Of a DNA stretch of 24,000 nt, positions 3,731-23,238 are shown one piece after another. The DNA is from Thermocrinis minervae (lineage in GTDB: Bacteria; Aquificota; Aquificia; Aquificales; Aquificaceae), in NCBI RefSeq assembly GCF_900142435.1, contig NZ_LT670846.1:204486-228485 (forward strand), given 5' to 3'. The notes beneath the pieces are model-generated. The model had not been told where the DNA came from and searched no databases. It saw only the letters and a program-made list of their open reading frames with translations. A program made the position numbers and the translations under genes. Every line of letters begins with the position of its first letter. Within the stretch, counting starts at the first letter, position 1.

Positions 3731-4299
3731 TGTTTCTGCTGATTCTCATACTACCACTCCTTGTATGGTCGGATACACTTAGCAACCTAAGCAAGAAGCT
3801 TGAGAAGGTAAGGACCATAAGGGTAGACTTTATACAGAGAGTTCAGTACCCATGGTCAGCAAGACCTGAGATTTCAAAGGGCATAATATACGCACAGAAG
3901 GGTGGCAAGTTCAGGATAGAGTACACAAGCCCACAAAGGCTTTTGATAGTATCAAACGGTAAAGACATACTCATAGAGTACCCCGGGAAAAATATAAGGT
4001 ATATAGACAACATTCAGAACAACAGATCCTCAGTGGTGGAGGCCATCTTTTTACTTTCAAAACCCCTGGAAGATGTATTTAAACCAGTGCTCGAGAGTTC
4101 AAGGAACGGTAAAGTAATGCTAACGCTTGTACCTAAGGTAAAAGATAGCACTATAGAAAGAGTAACGCTAGAGTTAGAAGACTTGGACATACGGAAGATG
4201 TGGATAGAGGCCCCAGACGGTACACGTGTGGAGCTAGAGTTCATAAACATAAAGGAGAACTTTACACCATCCCCAAACCTGTTTACAGTATGGAAATAA
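3727..4299 (+). CDS. lolA: LolA-like outer-membrane lipoprotein carrier protein
   Basis: 190 aa with signal peptide MMFLLILILPLLVWS. The LolA-like pattern is L...L..V.TIRVDFIQ followed by alternating beta-strand sequence. ATGA overlap with the upstream peptidase gene. Confidence 0.65.
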   Translation: MMFLLILILPLLVWSDTLSNLSKKLEKVRTIRVDFIQRVQYPWSARPEISKGIIYAQKGGKFRIEYTSPQRLLIVSNGKDILIEYPGKNIRYIDNIQNNRSSVVEAIFLLSKPLEDVFKPVLESSRNGKVMLTLVPKVKDSTIERVTLELEDLDIRKMWIEAPDGTRVELEFINIKENFTPSPNLFTVWK

Positions 4300-4748
4300 G
4301 AAGGCTTACACCAGAGGATATACCAAGCATGGTAGACCTGTATCTGGAAGGCTACAAGGGTTTGGAAGAGTATGCCTACACGAACCGAGAAGATGTAGAG
4401 GCTTACATGGGGTGGCTCTTCAGAAGAGATGTAGCTGGAATATGGGGTGCATTTGACAACGGTAAACTTGTGGGCTTTGTAGCAGCAGATGGCAACTGGT
4501 TTAGCAAGAGAGAGGGTAAAGTGGTTGGAGCCATACACGAGCTTGTAGTACATCCCAAGTACAGAGGTATGGGATTAGGTAAGAAGCTTATGAAGAAAGC
4601 TTTGGAATACTTCAAAGAAAGAGGTCTTGACCTTGCTGAACTTTGGGTGGGAGATGAAAACAAAGATGCAATAAACTTTTACAAGTCTTTGGGTTTTAAG
4701 GAAAGAGACAGGTTTAACTACTGGATAAGGATGGTAAGGAATGTTTAA
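4290..4748 (+). CDS. GNAT-family N-acetyltransferase
   Basis: The ORF-track frame 4200-4748 overlaps lolA heavily. The internal ATG at 4290 (MEIRRLTPEDIPS...) gives a typical 152-aa GNAT with acetyl-CoA motif VHPKYRGMGLGKKLMKKA. Confidence 0.8.
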   Translation: MEIRRLTPEDIPSMVDLYLEGYKGLEEYAYTNREDVEAYMGWLFRRDVAGIWGAFDNGKLVGFVAADGNWFSKREGKVVGAIHELVVHPKYRGMGLGKKLMKKALEYFKERGLDLAELWVGDENKDAINFYKSLGFKERDRFNYWIRMVRNV

Positions 4749-5478
4749 GGAAGGTGATTACATCCTTATAGTCTACGGAGACAAAAGATTCTTAAAAAGA
4801 CTAAGTAAAGGCTTCAGCCTTAACGTAAAGGATGCAGTCTTGAAATTCGAGGATGTGGTAGGAAAGGAAGAAGGGAGCAAAGTAGGAGATTTTTACCTAT
4901 TTAGACCAACGGTAGAAGAGATAATTCTGTACGGTTTTAAGAGAAAAACTCAGATAATCTATCCGAAGGATGCCTTCTACATAGCTTACACCCTTGGTTT
5001 GGACAAGAGTAAGAGGGTACTAGAGTTTGGAACTGGAAGCGGAGCCCTTACGACTGTACTTTCTCTACTCGGAGGTGAGGTGTGGACCTTTGAGGCTTCT
5101 GAGAATTTCTATAAGCTAGCCCTTAGCAACTGGGAAGCTTTTGGTCTTTGTAAGGAGGTAAAGCACTTTAACATGGACTTTATGCAAGCAGAGTTGGAAG
5201 AAGAGTTTTTTGACGCTGCCTTTGTAGACGTAAGAGAACCATGGCACTACCTTGAAAAGCTTCACAAAGTACTAAAGAAGGGAGCAAGGTGTGGATTCTT
5301 ACTCCCTACAACAAACCAAGTTAGCACCCTTCTTAAAAACCTACAGGGTTTATTCTCGGATGTGACAGTCCTCGAGATACTCCACAGGTACTACAAAACA
5401 AACCCAGATAGACTAAGGCCCGAAGACAGGATGGTAGCCCACACGGGCTATCTTATATTCTGCAGGAAGATAACGTAG
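4741..5478 (+). CDS. trmI: tRNA (adenine-N1)-methyltransferase, TrmI/Gcd14 family (m1A58)
   Basis: 245 aa. N-terminal beta domain (FKEGDYILIVYGDKRFLKRL), then IIYPKDAFYI and SAM motif I LEFGTGSGALT. Confidence 0.7.
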   Translation: MFKEGDYILIVYGDKRFLKRLSKGFSLNVKDAVLKFEDVVGKEEGSKVGDFYLFRPTVEEIILYGFKRKTQIIYPKDAFYIAYTLGLDKSKRVLEFGTGSGALTTVLSLLGGEVWTFEASENFYKLALSNWEAFGLCKEVKHFNMDFMQAELEEEFFDAAFVDVREPWHYLEKLHKVLKKGARCGFLLPTTNQVSTLLKNLQGLFSDVTVLEILHRYYKTNPDRLRPEDRMVAHTGYLIFCRKIT

Positions 5479-5954
5479 CTTTCCTTTATGTCAGGCAGGC
5501 TTATTCTGCAATAATCAAAGCCCGTGGGAACTTCAGACCCCTTCATTATGAATATGTACCTACTTGACAGTCTCCTCAGAAGCTCAAGTATATCTTCAAG
5601 CTTCCCTAGAGCCCTACAGACCACTAGGTCAAAAGTCCTTTCTACCTTCTCGGCCCTTGTACAGAGGACCTCATAGTCCAAAGAGAGCTTTACCTTAAGG
5701 TACTCCAAGAAGGAACACTTCTTATGAACGCTCTCTATTAAAGTAAGGTTTATCCTGTCGCCGTAGAATATCTTTAAGGGTACACCTGGAAAGCCAGCTC
5801 CGCTACCCACATCACAGACAGAAAGGCCATCTACGCGTATGGACTTCTCCTCAAAACAAAGGCTAAGACTGATCGAGTCTAAAAAGTGTCTTACCACTAT
5901 GAGATGATCTTCTTCTATGGAGGTTAAGTTATGAACCTTGTTCCATCTTTTCAA
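5448..5954 (-). CDS. rsmG: 16S rRNA m7G527 methyltransferase RsmG (GidB); conservative TTG start, the true start is probably further upstream
   Basis: KRWNKVHNLTSI, RHFLDS and VCDVGSGAGFPGVPLKI are classic RsmG motifs. The frame stays open and RsmG-like up to 6068 (see finding). Confidence 0.85.
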   Translation of the reverse strand: MKRWNKVHNLTSIEEDHLIVVRHFLDSISLSLCFEEKSIRVDGLSVCDVGSGAGFPGVPLKIFYGDRINLTLIESVHKKCSFLEYLKVKLSLDYEVLCTRAEKVERTFDLVVCRALGKLEDILELLRRLSSRYIFIMKGSEVPTGFDYCRISLPDIKESYVIFLQNIR

Positions 5955-6028
5955 CTCTTGGAGGTATACGTAGAAAAGGTCTATTTGCTGTTGATTAAGC
6001 TGAAAGCCGTTCCTTGAAAAGACCTCCT

Positions 6029-6622
6029 TTATAAGCTCCTTAGTATGTATCGCAGATCCTCCGCCATCTTATCAGGATCCTGCTTACCTGGTGTGTAGAT
6101 TGCCTTTATCTTCATATCTGGAGTGACTAGGTAGACGCTAGCCGTATGGTCCACCAAGTAGCCCACGGCAGAACCGCTGTTTTCTACCTTCCTGTAGTAG
6201 ACTTTGTACTCCTTTGCCACATTTCTTATCTCATCAGGGGTTCCAGTAAAGCCCATGAAGTTAGGATTGAAAAAGGGTACGTAGCCTTTTAGCTGCTGCG
6301 GTGTGTCCCTTTCTGGGTCAACGCTTATGAATATTACCTTAACTCTCTTTTGCTCCTCAGGGGACAACTTTTTGTACATGGTTGCGAGCCTTTGAAGTGT
6401 ATCGGGGCATACGTCTGGACAGTTGGTGTAGCCGAAGAATATGAGGGCAACTTTATCCTTGCCCAGGAGTTGGGAAAGCTTCTCCCTCTTGCCATCCTGG
6501 TTGGTAAGCTCAAAGTCATACGCGGGCAGATCCACCACATGACCGTAGAACTTGTAGGGCTTTTGACAAGACCAGAGAATCATAAGGAAGGTAAAGACAA
6601 AGAGAAAGTTAAACCTACTCAT
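6029..6622 (-). CDS. SCO1/SenC-family copper chaperone (thioredoxin fold), probable lipoprotein
   Basis: 197 aa with signal and lipobox-like LILWSC, the CPDVCP (CxxxC) copper motif and downstream DHTASVYLV. Confidence 0.85.
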   Translation of the reverse strand: MSRFNFLFVFTFLMILWSCQKPYKFYGHVVDLPAYDFELTNQDGKREKLSQLLGKDKVALIFFGYTNCPDVCPDTLQRLATMYKKLSPEEQKRVKVIFISVDPERDTPQQLKGYVPFFNPNFMGFTGTPDEIRNVAKEYKVYYRKVENSGSAVGYLVDHTASVYLVTPDMKIKAIYTPGKQDPDKMAEDLRYILRSL

Positions 6623-9205: not shown

Positions 9206-11656
<2,451 letters not shown>

Positions 11657-12458: not shown

Positions 12459-13127
12459 ATGGGTAAGTTGTACGTTATAGCCACTCCTATAGGTAACTTG
12501 GGTGATATTACCTACAGAGCTATTGAAATCTTAAAAAAAGTAAACTTTATAGCATGCGAGGATACAAGAAGGACTATGATACTTTTGAACCACTATGGGA
12601 TCAAAGACAAAAAGCTTCTCTCCTACTACGAGCCTAAAGAAAGCCTGCAGGTGCCAAAGATTCTAAAGCTCCTTGAAAAGGAAGACGTAGCCCTTGTGTC
12701 TGACGCGGGCATGCCTTCCATATCTGATCCTGGCTACAAGCTCATAAAACAGTGTATACAGAAGAATATACCCGTTGAGGTCATACCCGGGCCAAGCGCC
12801 GTGACTACAGCACTAGTCGGCTCTGGACTACCCACAGACAGGTTCCTGTTTGTAGGATTCTTACCCAAGAAGGGTCTTGAAGGCTACCTTGAAGAGTTAA
12901 AAACATGCACGGATACAACCATAATAGCCTTTGAATCTCCCAACAGAATCCTCAAGACTCTTGAGGTCATGAAAAAAGTGTTTCCACCTCAAACGGAAAC
13001 GTGCGTAGCCAGAGAGCTTACAAAGATCCACGAGGAATATATAAGGGGATCACTAGAGGATGTATACAATCAGTTAAAAGAAAGGGGAGAGATCAAGGGA
13101 GAGATTGTCCTCCTCTGGAGACTGTAA
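12459..13127 (+). CDS. rsmI: 16S rRNA (cytidine1402-2'-O)-methyltransferase
   Basis: 222 aa with LYVIATPIGNLGDITYRAIEIL, ACEDTRRT and SDAGMPSISDPG. Confidence 0.9.
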   Translation: MGKLYVIATPIGNLGDITYRAIEILKKVNFIACEDTRRTMILLNHYGIKDKKLLSYYEPKESLQVPKILKLLEKEDVALVSDAGMPSISDPGYKLIKQCIQKNIPVEVIPGPSAVTTALVGSGLPTDRFLFVGFLPKKGLEGYLEELKTCTDTTIIAFESPNRILKTLEVMKKVFPPQTETCVARELTKIHEEYIRGSLEDVYNQLKERGEIKGEIVLLWRL

Positions 13128-13140
13128 AATATACCAAGTT

Positions 13141-16100
13141 ATGATACCAAGCTACTTCTTAAGACTGTGTCCTAACTGCGGTGGCGATATAAGCTCTGAA
13201 AGGTTGTATGCTGGTCTTCCGTGTGAGAAGTGCATGCCAGAGATAAGGCAGGACGTATGTTCTTACGAAGACCTCAAGGGGTTTATGGAAAAGATATGCA
13301 AGATGGAGGAGGAACTAAGCGAGTGGGAAGCCTTCTTCCAAAAGAGGATCGGCTCTAAACCTTGGAGCCTCCAACTTGCATGGGCAAAGAGGGTACTTCT
13401 GGGCAGATCCTTTGCTCTGCTCGCACCAACGGGCGTAGGAAAAACCTCCTTCGGCACATCCATGGCCGTCTTCTTAGCCAAGAAGGGTAAAAGATCTTAC
13501 ATAATAGTGCCTACCAAATTACTCCTGAAGCAGATCCATAACAAACTTCTCAGCTTAGGACTGGAGGAAGAAGAACTTTTGTACTTCGGTGATGAGACCG
13601 AGAAAGAAAAGGAGAAGAAAAGACAGCTTCTACAAGAGGGAAGGTTTAAGGTCCTTTTAACTACTTCCATGTTCCTCTATAGGAATTACCAAGCTATACC
13701 CAGAGGCTTTTCCTTTGTCTTTGTGGACGACGTAGATTCCTTCTTAAAAACAGCAAAGAATATAGACAAAGCCTTATACCTCCTAGGTTTTGACGAGGAG
13801 GACATTCAAAAAGCCTTAGAGCTTATAAAGGAAAAATCAAGCCACAACAGGGATTACGAGAAGATAAAGTCCCTATCCGAGGAAGTAAAGAAGTTATCTC
13901 TGAAGGCAAAGGGTGTTCTTGTGGTGTCTTCTGCCACTTCCAACCCAAGGTCAAACAGGGTAAAGCTCTTTAGAGAACTTTTAGGCTTTGAAGTAGGAAC
14001 ACCTACCTTCTACCTTAGAAATGTAGTAGACGCTTACGTACATGAAAGGCCTACCATTGAGACTCTAGTAAACTGGATTAGGAAGCTAGGCAAAGGGGGC
14101 TTGGTGTTTGTTTCCTCCGACATGGGCAAAGAACAAGTAGAAAAACTGAAGGAAGCTTTAAGTCACCATGGTATTAACTCCCTAACGTACGAAGAGCTGA
14201 CAGAAGAGAATCTAAAGCTTTACGAAGAGGGTAAGGTAGAGGTACTCATAGGCATAGCCTCCTACAGAAACCCGCTAGCCCGTGGCTTCGATATGCCCCA
14301 TGTAGTCAGGTATGCCATCTTTTACGGAGTTCCCAAGATGAGCATATCCCTAAAGCTAGAGGAAAACCTCTCACACCTCCTTTGGGCTTTAACCTCCATA
14401 AGGTCGCTAATAGTAAAGCAGCTTCCCCATTATGGGCCAACGCTAGAAAGATGGATAGAAAGACTAAGAAGGTACCAGTACTTGTCAGAGGAATTCCTCG
14501 AAGAAAAACAGGATCTAAAAGAAAAGGTTGATAACTTGAAGCTTGAAATATCCAAATTCCTGAACTCTGAAGATGTTATAGCCATACTGGAGAGCAGCAA
14601 TGAAGTAACCTTAAGAAGATCGGAAGAAGGATACTATCTTGTGGTTTCGGACGTTACAGGCTATCTCCAGGCAAGCGGTAGAACATCAAGGATGTACGCC
14701 GGTGGTATAAGCAAAGGTCTTTCTCTTGTATTAGTCGATGATGTAAGAGCTCTAAACCACCTGCAAAAAAGGGTAAGATGGTTCAACGAAGATATAAAGC
14801 TTACACCCATAGAAGAAATAGACATAGGGAAAATAGTAGAGGAGATAGACAGAGATAGGGAAAAGATAAAGAATATATTGGCTGGTAAGGAAAAGCCTCA
14901 GTCTAAAGACATTCTAAAACCCATCCTCATAGTCGTGGAGTCACCCAACAAAGCTAGAACTATAGCCAACTTCTTCGGTAAGCCTGTAAGAAGAAGGGTA
15001 GGAGATCACGAACTTCTCGAAACCTCTGTAGAAGACAGATACATAATGATAACCGCATCCTTGGGACACATAACAGACCTAAACAAAGAAAGAGACTTTC
15101 ACGGTGTTTATGTAAGCGAGGACAGCATTGTACCCTACTACGAAGTTATAGAGGGAAAGGAAGGTATAGTAGAGAGTCTCAGGCTTATGGCTATGGAATG
15201 TTCTGAGGTGCTTGTAGCCACAGACCCGGACACAGAGGGTGAGAAGATAGGCTGGGATATAAGGCTTATCCTCAGACCTTATGTAAAAAACATAAAACGT
15301 ATGGAGTTCCACGAAGTTACCAAAAAGGCTATCTTAAAGGGGATAAAAGAACCAAGGGACTTTAACGAAAACCTAGTAAAAGCTCAGATAGTAAGAAGGA
15401 TAGCTGACAGATGGGTAGGTTTTGAGTTCTCTCAAGAGCTTTGGAGAGCCTTTGGCAAAAACTGGCTTTCTGCAGGAAGAGTTCAGACGCCTGTGCTTGG
15501 TTGGATAATAAAGAGAGAGCAAGAATACCGCCAAAAGATATACAAAGTAATAATAAACCTGGACCAGGATGATAAAAGGCTAAGGATTGAATTCACCTTT
15601 GACAACAAGCAGGAAGCCAAAGAGTTCTTTGATAACTTAGACAGCATTAGAATAGAAAAAATAGAGGAAGCTGAAGAGTACATTCACCCACCGCCACCTT
15701 ACAGAACGGACACACTTTTAAAGGACGCAAGCGACAAGTTCAAATTCTCACTTCAAAAGACCATGGACCTTGCTCAAACCCTCTTTGAACTCGGCTTTAT
15801 AACTTACCACCGGACAGACTCGGTCAGAGTTTCGGACTATGGCATAGCTATAGCCAGGGAGTTCATAGAAGAAAACTTTGGCAAAGAATACTTCCATCCT
15901 AGAGTTTGGGGAGAAGGTGGAGCCCACGAATGTATAAGGCCCACAAAGAACATAGAACCAGAAGAGCTAAGATCTTTAGTACTCAGCGGGCAGGTAGAAG
16001 GTCTCAATAAAGATCATCTAGCTATCTACACCCTTGTGTTTAAACGGTTTATGGCAAGCCAGATGAAGCCAGCTAAGGTAAGAGTAATAAAAACTCTAAT

Positions 16101-16587
16101 AAAAGCTTTAGACAAAGAGCTGACTGTAAGTCTAAGAACTCATATACTTGAAGAAGGCTTTAACAATATACTTCCCATAGAACTCAACCCATCCTACGAG
16201 GATGTCACCCTGAGTACCGAAGGAAGAAAATACTTAAAAGCATCACCGAGGGCATATCTGTACACCTACGGCGAGCTAGTTATGGAGATGAAAGAAAAGG
16301 GTATAGGTAGACCTTCCACCTATGCCACGATAGTAGAAAAGCTGATAGAAAGGGGGTACGTCATAGAGAAAAAGGGCTTCCTTATCCCCACAAGGCTTGG
16401 GAAGGAGATATACCAATACCTGAGCTCAAAAGACCAGATAAAGGGATTCGTCTCCGAGGAGTTTACAAAAGAGTTAGAAAAGATGATGGACATGGTGGAG
16501 GATGGAAAAGAAAACTACATAAGCATACTAAAAAAGCTATACAGGGATATAATAATCTTGGAAAAAGAGTTGGAGGTAGGAAGATGA
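13141..16587 (+). CDS. rgy: Reverse gyrase (helicase-like domain fused to type IA topoisomerase)
   Basis: N-terminal zinc finger CPNCGG...CEKC, Walker A APTGVGKT, DDVD box, Toprim VVESPNKA and DPDTEGE, and catalytic-Tyr motif ITYHRTDS. The ORF track starts at TTG 13105, inside rsmI; the ATG at 13141 (MIPSYFLRLCPNCGG) is the likelier start. Confidence 0.97.
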   Translation: MIPSYFLRLCPNCGGDISSERLYAGLPCEKCMPEIRQDVCSYEDLKGFMEKICKMEEELSEWEAFFQKRIGSKPWSLQLAWAKRVLLGRSFALLAPTGVGKTSFGTSMAVFLAKKGKRSYIIVPTKLLLKQIHNKLLSLGLEEEELLYFGDETEKEKEKKRQLLQEGRFKVLLTTSMFLYRNYQAIPRGFSFVFVDDVDSFLKTAKNIDKALYLLGFDEEDIQKALELIKEKSSHNRDYEKIKSLSEEVKKLSLKAKGVLVVSSATSNPRSNRVKLFRELLGFEVGTPTFYLRNVVDAYVHERPTIETLVNWIRKLGKGGLVFVSSDMGKEQVEKLKEALSHHGINSLTYEELTEENLKLYEEGKVEVLIGIASYRNPLARGFDMPHVVRYAIFYGVPKMSISLKLEENLSHLLWALTSIRSLIVKQLPHYGPTLERWIERLRRYQYLSEEFLEEKQDLKEKVDNLKLEISKFLNSEDVIAILESSNEVTLRRSEEGYYLVVSDVTGYLQASGRTSRMYAGGISKGLSLVLVDDVRALNHLQKRVRWFNEDIKLTPIEEIDIGKIVEEIDRDREKIKNILAGKEKPQSKDILKPILIVVESPNKARTIANFFGKPVRRRVGDHELLETSVEDRYIMITASLGHITDLNKERDFHGVYVSEDSIVPYYEVIEGKEGIVESLRLMAMECSEVLVATDPDTEGEKIGWDIRLILRPYVKNIKRMEFHEVTKKAILKGIKEPRDFNENLVKAQIVRRIADRWVGFEFSQELWRAFGKNWLSAGRVQTPVLGWIIKREQEYRQKIYKVIINLDQDDKRLRIEFTFDNKQEAKEFFDNLDSIRIEKIEEAEEYIHPPPPYRTDTLLKDASDKFKFSLQKTMDLAQTLFELGFITYHRTDSVRVSDYGIAIAREFIEENFGKEYFHPRVWGEGGAHECIRPTKNIEPEELRSLVLSGQVEGLNKDHLAIYTLVFKRFMASQMKPAKVRVIKTLIKALDKELTVSLRTHILEEGFNNILPIELNPSYEDVTLSTEGRKYLKASPRAYLYTYGELVMEMKEKGIGRPSTYATIVEKLIERGYVIEKKGFLIPTRLGKEIYQYLSSKDQIKGFVSEEFTKELEKMMDMVEDGKENYISILKKLYRDIIILEKELEVGR

Positions 16588-18419: not shown

Positions 18420-19286
18420 ATGGGTTATATGATAAGGAGTGCTCTATTACTTGGTCTGTTGACTGGACTTTTTCTTTTTGTAGGTCATATGATAGCAGGG
18501 AAGACGGGTATGCTCATAGCCCTTATCATGGCAGGTATCATGAACTTTATAGCCTACTTTTTCTCAAGCAAGATAGTGCTTGCTATGTACGGAGCACGCG
18601 AGATAACTGAAGAGGAAGCCCCGTGGCTGCATAGGATTGTGGAAGAGCTTGCTAGAAATGCTAACATCCCTAAACCCAAGATATACCTGGTTCCTATGGA
18701 ACAGCCAAACGCCTTCGCCACGGGGAGAGGACCTTCAGACGGAGCAGTTGCAGTAACAAGCGGTATACTACAACTGCTTGACGAGAGGGAACTAAGAGGA
18801 GTTCTTGCCCACGAGATAGGTCATATAAAGAACAGAGATGTACTCGTAGCAACCATTGCAGCAACTATAGCCGGTGCTATCTCTTACCTCGTTAACATCT
18901 TGCAATGGTCCCTTATATTTGGTGGAAGTAGAGAAGAGGAAAACAAAAACCCGCTATCCTTAATAGCAGCTCTTGCCACCATAATCATAACACCCATAAT
19001 AGCTACCATAATCCAGCTTGCTATATCAAGGACTAGGGAGTACCTGGCAGACGAAACAGGTGCTTACATATCTGGAGACCCACTTGCCCTAGCAAGTGCT
19101 CTTGAAAAGATCCATAACTATGTATACCAAATACCTGCAGAGGTAAACCAAGGTACGGCACACCTATTCATAGAGAATCCTCTTTCTGGACAAGGTTTAT
19201 GGGAACTCTTCTCAACTCACCCACCCACGGAGAAGAGGATAGAAAGGCTCAAAGAAATAGCCAGGAAGATGGGGAAGGCGTATTAA
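18420..19286 (+). CDS. htpX: M48-family zinc metalloprotease HtpX
   Basis: 288 aa with N-terminal TM helices, the HEIGHIKNRD (HExxH) motif, further TM helices and a distal EYLADE. Confidence 0.9.
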   Translation: MGYMIRSALLLGLLTGLFLFVGHMIAGKTGMLIALIMAGIMNFIAYFFSSKIVLAMYGAREITEEEAPWLHRIVEELARNANIPKPKIYLVPMEQPNAFATGRGPSDGAVAVTSGILQLLDERELRGVLAHEIGHIKNRDVLVATIAATIAGAISYLVNILQWSLIFGGSREEENKNPLSLIAALATIIITPIIATIIQLAISRTREYLADETGAYISGDPLALASALEKIHNYVYQIPAEVNQGTAHLFIENPLSGQGLWELFSTHPPTEKRIERLKEIARKMGKAY

Positions 19287-20230
19287 AAGCTTGCCTTCTT
19301 CTCCGTACCTTTATAACCTACCATAGATTTTATAGCTAGAGCGAACTCTCTTATCTCTTTCTGCGCATGTCTGTCTTCTCTCAGGCTTATAAAGTTATCA
19401 AGAGAAATCCTAGGAACGGTCCAATAGAAGCGTGTCTTCATAAATTGAGGAAGAACACCCCGTGCAAGTTCTTTCGCAACCCCAACCTCCACAAGCCTGT
19501 TGTAAAGGTTCAAAGATTCCTTAAGATGTACTTCAATTAGGCTTAAGTATTCTTGTTGATTTTCTATAGGCTCATCCTCGCTAGCCTGCTTGTTGTACTT
19601 TGATTGTACCCTTAGGATGCTTGGTATGTAAAAGCTTATGTTATAAGAAGTGTACCTTCTGCTCACTTCGTTGAAAGACCCAAACCTATGCCTAAACCAC
19701 TGCCTGGCTACAAAAAGAGGACACTCCACCACAAAGGTATAGTAATCCATGTCGGTATCTAACTCTAGGCTGTCCACAAGCCCTATCCATCCTGAAGAGG
19801 TTTCCATACGATTCTTTACAAAAGAGCTATCCAAGGTGTAGTTAGTGTTTTGTATATCCTGATTGGTCAGGAGGGCATAGCACGTGGGAAGCTTTTCTTT
19901 AACAGCTTCAAGCACCACCTGTGGAATAAAATTCACCGCCTTCATAAGGTTGCGTAGGTTCATCCATACGTACCCACCCGAGTAGTAAGCTTGAAACGTA
20001 GGGTTATCTACGGACGATATTAGGTTTAACCACTCTTCTTTTGAACCTTCAAAAGCTATCACCACATGCTCAAAAACGCTGGTATGTCTGTTCTCATAAA
20101 GATACTTAAGTAGAGCCTTATCCCTGTTTACATCCACTTCCTTATCATCCTTAGAGTAGGATACTCTTGCACACCTGACAATCCTTTGATCTGAACCCAT
20201 TATGTATATTTTTCTTGGACTACTCAACAT
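19283..20230 (-). CDS. thyX: Flavin-dependent thymidylate synthase ThyX, unusually long
   Basis: 315 aa with the ThyX signature RHRFGSFNEVSRRY (RHRxxSxxxxSxR), plus ARVSY, FEH and LREDRHAQKEIR. Confidence 0.85.
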   Translation of the reverse strand: MLSSPRKIYIMGSDQRIVRCARVSYSKDDKEVDVNRDKALLKYLYENRHTSVFEHVVIAFEGSKEEWLNLISSVDNPTFQAYYSGGYVWMNLRNLMKAVNFIPQVVLEAVKEKLPTCYALLTNQDIQNTNYTLDSSFVKNRMETSSGWIGLVDSLELDTDMDYYTFVVECPLFVARQWFRHRFGSFNEVSRRYTSYNISFYIPSILRVQSKYNKQASEDEPIENQQEYLSLIEVHLKESLNLYNRLVEVGVAKELARGVLPQFMKTRFYWTVPRISLDNFISLREDRHAQKEIREFALAIKSMVGYKGTEKKASF

Positions 20231-20626: not shown

Positions 20627-21076
20627 TCAGACGTTTGTATCGATCAAAAATAGAGGTTGCCCATACTCTACAGTTTCTCCATTCTCTACCAGTATCTTAA
20701 CTACCCTCCCCGCTACGTCGCTCTCTATCTCGTTCATCACCTTTAGGGCTTCTATTATACACAGCACCTGTCCTGGAGAAACTATGTCACCCACTTCTAC
20801 AAAAGGTGGAGCGCCAGGAGATGGTGATCTATAAAAGGTACCCACCAAAGGACTTCTTATAACATGCAGGTTTTTCTCCTCTGTGGGAACAGAAGGAACC
20901 ATCACCTCCAACTGCTTATGTGTTTCCGGTTTAGCAGGCATACTAAACGCCTGAGGTTCTTCAACCTTATAGGTTTCTATTGTTATCTCAAAACCTTCCG
21001 CCTTTAGGGATAACAGCCTTATGTTGCTGTTCTTTACCTCCCTTATCAGCTCCTTTATAAGCTCCTTATCCATCAC
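20627..21076 (-). CDS. accB: Acetyl-CoA carboxylase biotin carboxyl carrier protein
   Basis: 149 aa. The C-terminal biotinyl domain has EALKVMNEI (an EAMKM-type biotinyl-lysine motif) and a Pro/Ala-rich linker. Confidence 0.9.
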   Translation of the reverse strand: MMDKELIKELIREVKNSNIRLLSLKAEGFEITIETYKVEEPQAFSMPAKPETHKQLEVMVPSVPTEEKNLHVIRSPLVGTFYRSPSPGAPPFVEVGDIVSPGQVLCIIEALKVMNEIESDVAGRVVKILVENGETVEYGQPLFLIDTNV

Positions 21077-21642
21077 TTTACCCTTTCCACATAGCTACCA
21101 GTCCTTGTGTCCACACGTACTATATCTCCCTCGTTCACGAAGAAGGGTACCTGTATAACTGCACCTGTTTCAAGCTTAGCAGGTTTACTACCGCCTGCTG
21201 CTGTATCACCTTTAAAAGCAGGTTCTGTTTCTACCACCTTAAGATCTACATGTTTAGGAAGCTCTATACCCACAGGTTGGCCTTTGTAGAGGAACACTAC
21301 AACCGTCATCCCTTCCTTCAGAAACTTGGTCTCTTCCTTTATGTTTTCATAAGGTACAGCTATCATATCGTAGGTGGTTTGGCTTATAAAGTAGTAGTTG
21401 TCACCGTCGTTGTATGAATACTCTGCAAACACCTGTTCAAAGTCTGCGAGTTCTATGGAGTCAGAGGATTTGTAGGTAAGTTCTATGGTGTTTCCCGTCT
21501 GCATGTTTTTGGCCTTTATCCTTACAAAGGCCTGCCCCTTACCCGGCTTAACGTGTTCGTAGTCTAAGACTCTGTACGGTTGCCCGTTATGTTCAATAAA
21601 CATATCTCTTTGAATGCTGTTTATGTCGATTTTCACACCCAT
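21073..21642 (-). CDS. efp: Translation elongation factor P
   Basis: 189 aa with HVKPGKGQAFVRIKAKN (the loop carrying the modified Lys) and a three-domain length. ATGA-type 4-nt overlap with accB. Confidence 0.95.
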   Translation of the reverse strand: MGVKIDINSIQRDMFIEHNGQPYRVLDYEHVKPGKGQAFVRIKAKNMQTGNTIELTYKSSDSIELADFEQVFAEYSYNDGDNYYFISQTTYDMIAVPYENIKEETKFLKEGMTVVVFLYKGQPVGIELPKHVDLKVVETEPAFKGDTAAGGSKPAKLETGAVIQVPFFVNEGDIVRVDTRTGSYVERVK

Positions 21643-21763
21643 GTTTTTATTTTACCATGCATCCCCTATCTTCTTTCTCTTACTTACCTTAATTAATACT
21701 TATAGTGTTTTAGAAGAAGATGATGATAGGCCTTGAGTCCTGTAAACTCAACTTTTTAACAGA

Positions 21764-21831
21764 TCCTTGAAAATCAATCGTTTGGTAATTTGAATTCCAC
21801 ACTCCATATCTAAAGTCTTTGATTCTCAAGG
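21764..21831. repeat. Inverted repeat, unit A: CCTTGAAAATCAA (21765-21777) / TTGATTCTCAAGG (21819-21831), 41-nt spacer enclosing TTCCACA
   Basis: Read directly; 12 of 13 arm positions are complementary. Confidence 0.8.
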
Positions 21832-22024
21832 CTTTTCTGAAATAAAAATTGTACAGTAATTTCCTAGAGTTATGAAACATACTGGAAGTTTTTCACATCT
21901 TGTTGTGTAACTCCTATAAATACGTGAAATTTTTAAATGTACTTTCCTAATGTTATAGTGCAGAATGTGGAAAACTCATATGATCCTTGTGTATCAAAGC
22001 TTAGACCCTGTGAAAATCGTATGG

Positions 22025-22092
22025 TCCTAGAAAATCAACGCTTTGGCGATTTTATTTTCACATCCTGTATCCGAAGCTCTTGATTTTCTAAG
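22025..22092. repeat. Inverted repeat, unit B: CCTAGAAAATCAA (22026-22038) / TTGATTTTCTAAG (22080-22092), 41-nt spacer enclosing TTTTCACA
   Basis: Read directly; 12 of 13 arm positions are complementary. It is a paralogous copy of unit A, about 260 bp downstream. Confidence 0.8.
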
Positions 22093-22170
22093 TTTTTATG
22101 AAGTGAAAATTGTTCAACAAATTCCGAAACTTATAAAACATTCACAGGTTTAGGGTGTTTTCACATTTGA

Positions 22171-22215
22171 GTATGTGGAAAGTGTGAAAAGTATGTGGAA
22201 AAAGTATGTTTATAA
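22171..22215 (+). repeat. Head-to-tail array of four 9-13-bp box units: GTATGTGGAAA | GTGTGAAAA | GTATGTGGAAAAA | GTATGTTTATAA
   Basis: Read directly. Further copies are GTATGTGGAAA at 22244-22254 and GTATGTGAAAA at 22409-22419. Confidence 0.8.
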
Positions 22216-22358
22216 GTTACCGATATTACGATATTTTCTACGAGTATGTGGAAATTGTTCAAGTTATTGAGAGTAAAGTTTTATACGTTTTTACATTATG
22301 TTAACATGGTGTATTTTTAGTGCCTTATTTACAGACATTATAAAATGAGGCGTGAGAA

Positions 22359-22376
22359 TTATGATATATATCATAA
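22359..22376. repeat. Perfect 18-bp AT-rich palindrome TTATGATATATATCATAA
   Basis: Read directly; the reverse complement of the first 9 nt equals the last 9 nt. Confidence 0.9.
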
Positions 22377-22476
22377 ATTGAACCCGTTGCTATTAAGATT
22401 ACAGATAAGTATGTGAAAAAGTTAGAAGATTATGTTAACATGTCGAAGCTATACTTACAGCCTCTGCTATGTCTTT

Positions 22477-23238
22477 TTAGGAACTTAGCTTTATCAATTC
22501 AGCTCCGAGCCCATTCTTGATAAACTCTTTGACGAAGGGTACGCTGGAGTAAAGAATCTCCTCTTTAGTACCTATCTGTACTACTCTTCCCGACTGCAGA
22601 ACCATTATCCTGTCAGATATGGAAAAGGCGCTTACAAGGTCGTGAGTAACCACTATGGAGGTTATTCCCGTTTTTTCTCTTAAGGAGAGAATAAGCTGGT
22701 CTATGAGCCTGCTCGTTATTGGATCAAGGCCGCTTGTCGGTTCGTCGTATATTATAAGTCTTGGATCTGTGGCTATGGCTCTTGCTATTCCTACCCTCTT
22801 CCTCATCCCTCCAGACAGCTCCGAAGGGTACAGGTCAAGTACCTCTTCTCCTAAACCTACAAGCTTTAGCTTCTCAATGGCGAGGTTCCTCAGTTCATCT
22901 TGGTTCCTGTCTGTCTTTTCAAGGTAATAGAAAACTACGTTCTCCCATACTTTTAAGCTGTCGAAGAGAGCAGCACCCTGAAAGACATAGCCTATCTGCT
23001 TTCTTAGTTCATCCAGCTCCACTTTTTTGAGCGAAAGAAGGTCTTTCCCCAGCACCTCTACCTTTCCAGAGGTGGGTTGCCACAATCCTACTATACATTT
23101 GGTTATGGAGGTCTTACCGCTTCCACTACCGCCTACTATGGTGAATATTTCACCTTCTTTCACCTCGAAGGATATATCTTGAAGTATTATCCTCCCGTTT
23201 ATGACCTTGGTTAAGTTCTCTACTTTTACCGCGTACAT
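22477..23238 (-). CDS. ABC transporter ATP-binding protein (MlaF/Ttg2A-like)
   Basis: 253 aa with Walker A GGSGSGKT, Q-loop FQGAALFDSL, signature LSGGMRKRV and Walker B LIIYDEPTSGLD. Confidence 0.85.
   Translation of the reverse strand: MYAVKVENLTKVINGRIILQDISFEVKEGEIFTIVGGSGSGKTSITKCIVGLWQPTSGKVEVLGKDLLSLKKVELDELRKQIGYVFQGAALFDSLKVWENVVFYYLEKTDRNQDELRNLAIEKLKLVGLGEEVLDLYPSELSGGMRKRVGIARAIATDPRLIIYDEPTSGLDPITSRLIDQLILSLREKTGITSIVVTHDLVSAFSISDRIMVLQSGRVVQIGTKEEILYSSVPFVKEFIKNGLGAELIKLSS

Follow-up and report, generated by a model that had tools for sequence, protein, structure and literature searches.

A DnaA-box-rich intergenic region unlinked to dnaA as a candidate chromosomal replication origin of Thermocrinis minervae

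The 24-kb stretch of Thermocrinis minervae DNA analysed here (the window; positions are counted from its first nucleotide) contains a gene-free gap of 834 bp between efp and an ABC transporter ATPase gene. DnaA boxes are clustered in this gap, next to the least stable duplex found in the 24 kb, and the gap is probably the chromosomal replication origin (oriC) of the organism, unlinked to dnaA. The gap and the genes that border it are as follows (ORF, open reading frame).

21643..22476, unstranded: candidate oriC, the whole non-coding AT-rich region; no ORF above 56 aa, 30.9% G+C, no Rfam or Pfam match
21073..21642, minus strand: efp, left flanking gene; its start codon borders the gap and its transcription leads away from it
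22477..23238, minus strand: MlaF/ProV-like ABC transporter ATPase gene, right flank; its stop codon borders the gap and it is transcribed toward it

The initial annotation of this DNA had described the gap as AT-rich and without a listed ORF, with both flanking genes on the minus strand, and this description held when ORFs and base composition were checked. The longest internal ORF has 56 codons' worth of residues (56 aa), and the G+C content compares with 43.1% for the whole window and varies between 0.29 and 0.33 in sliding windows within the gap. The ABC ATPase gene is the last in the run apbE-apgM-thiS-ABC, all on the minus strand; the DNA to the right of the gap amounts to 1.5 kb within the window and was extended by about 1.2 kb using a Logan contig. 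The left ~100 bp of the gap probably also contain the efp promoter. The rest of the window is densely packed with genes. The next notable gap, between bpsA and gyrB, contains tRNA-Glu, as had been stated, and the other gaps are mostly within the 0–65 bp claimed for them, one of 74 bp (5954-6029; from the ORF list) being longer. Two further seeming gaps are coding: 1-1180 is a dehydrogenase-like ORF running off the left end together with a small ORF, and 4299-4741 is a GNAT acetyltransferase gene. So long a stretch without a called gene might hide an unannotated RNA gene or a gene for a small protein, but we consider this highly improbable. Rfam gave no match at a cut-off as loose as E = 1 (the two top matches lie far below thresholds), folding z-scores of −0.64 and −0.18 indicate no excess of single-strand folding, and 31% G+C is unlike the G+C-rich RNAs that are typical of hyperthermophiles; as for a small protein, the length of the longest ORF and the lack of any Pfam family even at E = 1 speak against it.

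Ten 9-mers resembling the classical DnaA box TTATCCACA had been reported in the gap, in both orientations, and all ten were found at the positions given for them. They span ~530 bp (21889-22420) and are listed here with one additional weak site; the repeat units mentioned are described below.

21793..21801, plus strand: weak DnaA-box-like site AATTCCACA, with box 22054 as its counterpart in the second repeat unit
21889..21897, plus strand: DnaA box TTTTTCACA, fits TTWTNCACA
21966..21974, minus strand: DnaA box TTTTCCACA, 8/9 match to TTATCCACA
22009..22017, minus strand: DnaA-box-like site ATTTTCACA
22054..22062, plus strand: DnaA-box-like site ATTTTCACA
22157..22165, plus strand: DnaA-box-like site GTTTTCACA, with box 21889 as its counterpart in the first repeat unit
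22174..22202, minus strand: tight head-to-tail array of three boxes, CTTTCCACA, CTTTTCACA and TTTTCCACA, starting at 22174, 22183 and 22194 (successive starts 9 and 11 bp apart)
22247..22255, minus strand: DnaA-box-like site ATTTCCACA, left border of the main AT-rich region, counterpart of box 21966
22412..22420, minus strand: DnaA box TTTTTCACA, right border of the main AT-rich region, with AT-rich DNA on its unwinding side

The match to TTATCCACA had been overstated for six of the ten. Among the boxes credited with eight matching positions, TTTTCCACA does have eight and TTTTTCACA (21889 and 22412) really has seven, while ATTTTCACA (two copies), GTTTTCACA and CTTTTCACA, credited with seven, have six. 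The repeated element is still real and is sharper than had been described: the core TTTYCACA is common to all ten boxes and TTTYCACAT, which is a recognised DnaA-box variant, is present in eight, while TTWTNCACA, the relaxed consensus for the E. coli DnaA box, is fitted by four. The plus strand carries TTTYCACA at boxes 21889, 22054 and 22157, together with the weak site at 21793, and the minus strand has the other seven boxes. Local enrichment of the boxes was confirmed both against 2000 dinucleotide shuffles of the gap itself and against 1.17 Mb of other loci. TTTYCACA occurs 10 times in the gap compared with a shuffle mean of 0.15 (~65-fold), ATGTGRAAA 8 times compared with 0.04 and TTWTNCACA 4 times compared with 0.17, and the observed number was reached in 0/2000 shuffles for each of the three motifs. 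In the other loci TTTYCACA is found at 0.18 per kb, with at most 3 copies in any 600 bp.

An old tandem duplication, its period 261 bp, makes up the left two thirds of the gap; its two units (A and B) contain the following features (IHF, integration host factor).

21764..21974, unstranded: repeat unit A of the 261-bp-period duplication
22025..22255, unstranded: repeat unit B, with extra boxes at 22174-22202
21767..21829, unstranded: palindromic sites TTGAAAATCAA (21767-21777) and TTGATTCTCAA (21819-21829) of unit A, an inverted repeat around box 21793
22028..22090, unstranded: palindromic sites TAGAAAATCAA (22028-22038) and TTGATTTTCTA (22080-22090) of unit B, an inverted repeat around box 22054
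21772..21784: IHF-consensus match AATCAATCGTTTG, unit A
22033..22045: IHF-consensus match AATCAACGCTTTG, unit B

Aligned without gaps, segments 21764-21880 and 22025-22141 share 84 of their 117 bases (null 54.4, standard deviation 1.7, maximum 61 in 200 resamplings), and the alignment of the units extends over about 230 columns. Three box positions correspond between the units (21793/22054, 21889/22157 and 21966/22247), the palindromic sites have the form TTGA-N3-TCAA in both, and the IHF consensus WATCAANNNNTTR is matched just twice in the whole window, once in each unit, these being predicted sites. Identity is 27/32 in the box columns and 109/201 in the other columns, a difference that points to selection on the boxes, although the associated Fisher p = 0.0016 overstates the case because the features were picked after viewing the alignment. 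Direct repeats of AGTATGTGGAAA together with a tandem duplication resemble iteron arrays, as might be expected if the gap derived from an integrated plasmid, virus or other mobile element, as a remnant or as its origin, and the repeats served as iterons. We give this very little credence, as no rep, integrase or transposase gene lies nearby, both flanks are housekeeping operons, BLAST comparison with 72,556 plasmids and 50,697 phage records revealed no similarity and the small ORFs of the gap have no Pfam domain.

To the right of the duplication lies the most AT-rich part of the gap, where the following features were recognised.

22256..22411, unstranded: candidate DNA unwinding element (DUE), about 24-27% G+C, bracketed by boxes 22247 and 22412
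22295..22308, unstranded: exact 14-nt repeat ATTATGTTAACATG, copy 1, containing the palindrome ATGTTAACAT
22429..22442, unstranded: exact 14-nt repeat ATTATGTTAACATG, copy 2
22391..22402, plus strand: four DnaA-trio-like triplets TAT TAA GAT TAC, with a 9-bp spacer to box 22412
21898..21965, unstranded: second AT-rich spacer (within unit A), flanked by the mutually facing boxes 21889 and 21966

That the right-hand part is AT-rich and palindromic had been proposed from the letters, and both duplex stability and a palindrome search agree. By nearest-neighbour calculation the lowest duplex stability in the window falls at 22279-22378 for segments of 100 bp and at 22179-22378 for those of 200 bp; the palindrome ATGTTAACAT occurs twice in this part of the gap and ATGATATATATCAT is also present. 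The two copies of ATTATGTTAACATG bracket box 22412 and the right ~120 bp of the candidate DUE. Spacer 21898-21965 is a candidate for an alternative or auxiliary unwinding site, with 21908-21957 as the third least stable 50-mer in the window. The E. coli R1 sequence places the unwinding side 5′ of the strand that reads TGTG. The same orientation applies in the basal unwinding system (BUS) of B. subtilis (PMC6669920, PMC8287927) and, because of this rule, box 22412 can be said to face the AT-rich segment. The BUS in B. subtilis incC comprises one or more DnaA boxes, DnaA-trios set off from them by no more than 16 bp, and then AT-rich DNA (PMC6669920, PMC8287927). The rule used in our search required a box with no more than two mismatches and, 0-16 bp away on the 5′ side of the strand that reads TGTG, three or more NAN triplets leading into AT-rich DNA (PMC8287927). 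Box 22412, its 9-bp spacer, the four A-centred triplets and the AT-rich DNA fit both rule and orientation; they differ from the B. subtilis BUS in that there is a single box and no tandem pair and that the trio run is short, with a chance level of ~12%.

The DnaA protein of T. minervae (P0191) is canonical, its nearest structures being those of A. aeolicus DnaA (E = 7e-96). Compared with domain IV of the E. coli protein (PDB 1J1V) it keeps R399, D433, H434 and T435, four of the six base-contact residues (whose roles are reportedly those given by Fujikawa et al. in 2003), and its domain IV is predicted to be able to read boxes of the kind found in the gap. Absence of dnaA and dnaN from the window had been entered as a caveat in the initial annotation. 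The absence is genuine, and neither gene is present in the ~1.2 kb of extended right flank, but as an objection it carries little weight because five Aquificota dnaA loci are without a box cluster, which makes the arrangement normal for the group. One of these is that of a near-identical strain (Logan assembly of SRR12999146), in which dnaA lies between aldo-keto reductase and TonB-dependent receptor genes on a different contig from the gap. There the gap upstream of dnaA is 105 bp, and 12.6 kb around the gene (3.7 kb upstream, 7.7 kb downstream) contained neither a box cluster nor an AT-rich region; box cores occur just twice (8078 and 8152), both inside a gene ~3 kb downstream of dnaA. Neither a box cluster nor an AT-rich gap was found at the dnaA genes of H. 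thermophilus, Pampinifervens florentissimum, Aquifex pyrophilus and one Aquificota metagenome-assembled genome (MAG). Evidently, oriC and dnaA are not neighbours in this family. An AT-rich stretch near dnaA of the Aquificota MAG (L041 4450-5400) was considered as an origin and rejected, as it contains ORFs and no box cluster; the two small minus-strand ORFs at L041 4499-5285 (161 and 103 aa, 30-39% G+C, 1.3 kb from dnaA) could be a toxin-antitoxin-like island. At three of the dnaA loci the gene directly upstream encodes an aldo-keto reductase (T. minervae, L084 2589-4889; P. florentissimum, L206 8840-11200; A. pyrophilus, L210 8901-11194), and this is a conserved pair amid otherwise scrambled gene order.

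Among the relatives sampled, the region was recognised only in the near-identical strain. There all ten boxes are kept, and the 5 single-nucleotide polymorphisms (SNPs) in the 734 bp of the gap that could be compared all fall outside them. In the Logan assembly of this strain the gap is split (22376-22403) between the ends of two contigs, L081 and L207, whose overlap of ~28 nt lies after the AT palindrome and before box 22412; the split may be due to nearby repeats or to strain heterogeneity. Elsewhere no equivalent region was found, because the gap sits where gene order breaks on both sides. The trio SCO1-gidB-GCD14 (window 4741-6622; L083 7142-9029) is conserved between T. minervae and H. 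thermophilus, and its distance from the ABC gene is 1-3 kb in the latter compared with 16 kb in the former, a difference suggestive of local rearrangement in the vicinity of the candidate origin, with the neighbourhood loosely retained. The H. thermophilus stretch with the trio has no box cluster. No other ORF-free AT-rich stretch of at least 300 bp, and no other box cluster, was found in ~0.9 Mb of Aquificaceae DNA, a rarity that is as expected of a once-per-genome feature. One possible equivalent, a gene-free stretch of 855 bp in an Aquificaceae MAG (L208/L209 7935-8789), was rejected on account of its normal G+C, protein-like frames and lack of a box cluster, and is probably a decayed gene and no origin. 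A metagenome scan with GTATGTGRAAA-N(0-30)-GTATGTGRAAA gave at least 120 matches, all unrelated (among them satellite-like tandem repeats and contigs of gut or marine origin) and none homologous to the gap. Some of the metagenome contigs carry dense tandem arrays of GTATGTGRAAA, with up to 24 cores in 600 bp (L151 2496-2886, L157, L120 and L108; Ga0105054 and others); coming from unrelated environments, these arrays look like satellite repeats. Literature searches yielded nothing on oriC in Aquificae and no experimentally defined origin for the Aquifex group.

That gene order is disrupted to the left and right of the gap also bears on whether ATGTGRAAA is bound by some other regulator, the gap being a long efp regulatory region or a remnant of rearrangement. 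TGTGA and TCACA are half-sites of CRP-type regulators as well, and the SNP density of the gap relative to the near-identical strain (0.68%) is comparable with that at third-codon positions, so that the gap as a whole is under no strong constraint. These observations are outweighed, in our view, by the asymmetry of the 9-mers, their occurrence in both orientations and a spacing unlike that of palindromic pairs, by the fit of the box consensus to TTWTNCACA and by promoter and terminator scans of the gap, which revealed nothing beyond chance; moreover, a rearrangement scar would not hold ten copies of a single motif. Binding by another regulator thus appears improbable, if somewhat less so than an RNA gene or a mobile element.

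Taken together, these data suggest that the gap is probably the chromosomal oriC of T. minervae, away from dnaA. The proposal in the initial annotation of a candidate oriC is strengthened by the box cluster, the least stable duplex, the canonical DnaA and the lack of a rival at dnaA; binding of DnaA, the site of unwinding and origin activity itself we infer from these sequence features. In the mechanism that we propose, DnaA would bind at least ten boxes with the consensus 5′-TTTYCACAT-3′. The triple array at 22174-22202 and the boxes next to it would nucleate an oligomer of ATP-DnaA, and the duplex would then open in the adjoining 22256-22411 (24-27% G+C), between boxes 22247 and 22412, the latter being oriented as in basal unwinding systems, with box, spacer, A-centred triplets and AT-rich DNA in this order. 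The left two thirds of the origin would have arisen by tandem duplication of a module of ~261 bp, made up of a palindrome pair, an IHF-consensus site and three DnaA boxes, and an architectural protein may bend each module. A more specific version, in which this is a lineage-specific, relocated and internally duplicated oriC with both module copies under selection, located at a gene-order break that is not shared with any relative sampled, is put forward only tentatively. The search for box clusters covered the window, the 12.6 kb around dnaA and the relatives' loci, in relation to a T. minervae genome of 1.37 Mb. As to the surroundings, gyrB and gidB, which are frequent neighbours of replication origins, lie ~10 kb and ~16 kb from the gap. 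Local GC skew is uninformative on an origin here because within the window it tracks the coding strand.

Several observations weigh against the gap being oriC. At 56 Aquificaceae efp loci the gap upstream of efp is short, with varied neighbours and neither an AT-rich gap nor a box cluster, and only the order efp-accB-(osmC) is kept. Nor is there such a gap downstream of the ABC orthologue in H. thermophilus TK-6 (where the end of this gene overlaps a convergent gene), in an Aquificaceae MAG (two assemblies) or in a Thermocrinis-like contig. No dnaN was detected in any fetched locus. Two of the six base-contact residues of E. coli DnaA are changed in the T. minervae protein (P423V and H439Y), although the pattern of retained and changed residues fits boxes in which CACA is invariant and the T-rich 5′ half varies. 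The DnaA-trio signal does not exceed chance: when random sequence of matched composition is scored, 34% of positions have at least three triplets and 12% at least four, so that the run in front of box 22412 is compatible with a BUS but is not evidence for one. Finally, the right-hand genes apbE, apgM, thiS and ABC point toward the gap, which counts mildly against an origin, since a rightward fork would run into them head-on; the oriC of E. coli, too, has one neighbour, mioC, transcribed into it.

Orientation of the genes, those on either side of the gap sharing one strand, is also what one might expect of a DnaA-box cluster that is not an origin. A cluster of the datA/DARS type or of the type found in B. 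subtilis would titrate or recycle DnaA or control efp, with oriC elsewhere, and of the alternatives to an origin we regard this as the most serious, albeit unlikely. The elements datA and DARS are composed of multiple DnaA boxes plus an IHF site, which is the make-up of the gap too, and no evidence from skew or synteny links the gap to an origin. However, such intergenic clusters, which resemble the gap in their boxes and possibly an IHF site, are without a long AT-rich unwinding segment and usually have fewer boxes, whereas here ten boxes adjoin the least stable duplex of the window, as in an origin; in addition, 834 bp of non-coding DNA is extreme in these compact genomes and the dnaA locus has no competing cluster.

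The candidate oriC can be compared with known origins. Like oriC of E. coli, which lies between mioC and gidA, it has multiple boxes in both orientations, tight head-to-tail arrays, an IHF-consensus match and an AT-rich unwinding segment at one edge beside a box oriented like R1; it is also far from dnaA, has gidB in the wider neighbourhood and has one flanking gene transcribed inward and the other outward. It differs in that its boxes are TTTYCACAT rather than TTATCCACA, in having no 13-mer repeats or clustered GATC sites, in being three times longer at ~830 bp with an internal tandem duplication, and in that its IHF sites are predicted only. Cyanobacterial origins carry TTTTCCACA boxes and are located beside dnaN. 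Multiple TTTTCCACA boxes are thus a feature that the gap shares with them (e.g. Synechococcus elongatus; species in PMC8287927), although they adjoin dnaN and the gap has neither dnaN nor dnaA on either side within the DNA available. The oriC of Thermotoga maritima, with a minimal origin of 149 bp and 12-mer boxes AAACCTACCACC (PMC6669920), is likewise a hyperthermophile origin served by a thermostable DnaA, but the T. maritima protein has an altered box specificity whereas the boxes of the T. minervae gap are of the canonical type. The DnaA of T. minervae keeps the DHTT signature and R399, with two other contact residues different from those of E. coli.

Three observations were made elsewhere in the window. 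A minus-strand ORF of 85 aa (921-1178) has an N-terminus like a signal peptide, then a His/Lys repeat (KHKKHKKHKKHKKHRKHK), and no Pfam match, and from this sequence may encode a small secreted metal-binding protein. The genes gyrB (9293-11656) and reverse gyrase (13105-16587) are on the same strand and 1.4 kb apart, separated by a Usp-family gene and a tetrapyrrole-methylase-family gene. The product of thyX (19283-20230, minus strand) has 315 aa compared with 211 positions in the family model, which it matches in two stretches, suggesting that it may have an N-terminal extension or a partial duplication of the domain; a similar Thy1 protein of 316 aa is encoded near dnaA in A. pyrophilus.

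From the point of view of annotation the gap would be an ordinary, previously unannotated oriC, and its extra interest is modest: the duplication of the module, the lack of an equivalent in relatives and the possibility that it is a cognate origin for DnaA of the Aquifex type. Much of the structural picture of the bacterial initiator is based on crystal structures of A. aeolicus DnaA. If the gap is oriC, then a delimited Aquificaceae origin with ten boxes, a triple array and a candidate DUE would allow the thermostable DnaA to be studied on cognate DNA. Methods of the GRiD type, which estimate growth rates from metagenomes, take dnaA as the marker of the origin (PMC8579995). This appears unsafe for the present family, as an origin-like region is absent beside dnaA at all five loci examined. 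If oriC has in addition been relocated and internally duplicated, T. minervae would offer a naturally occurring example of an origin that was duplicated and moved within the compact genome of a hyperthermophile.

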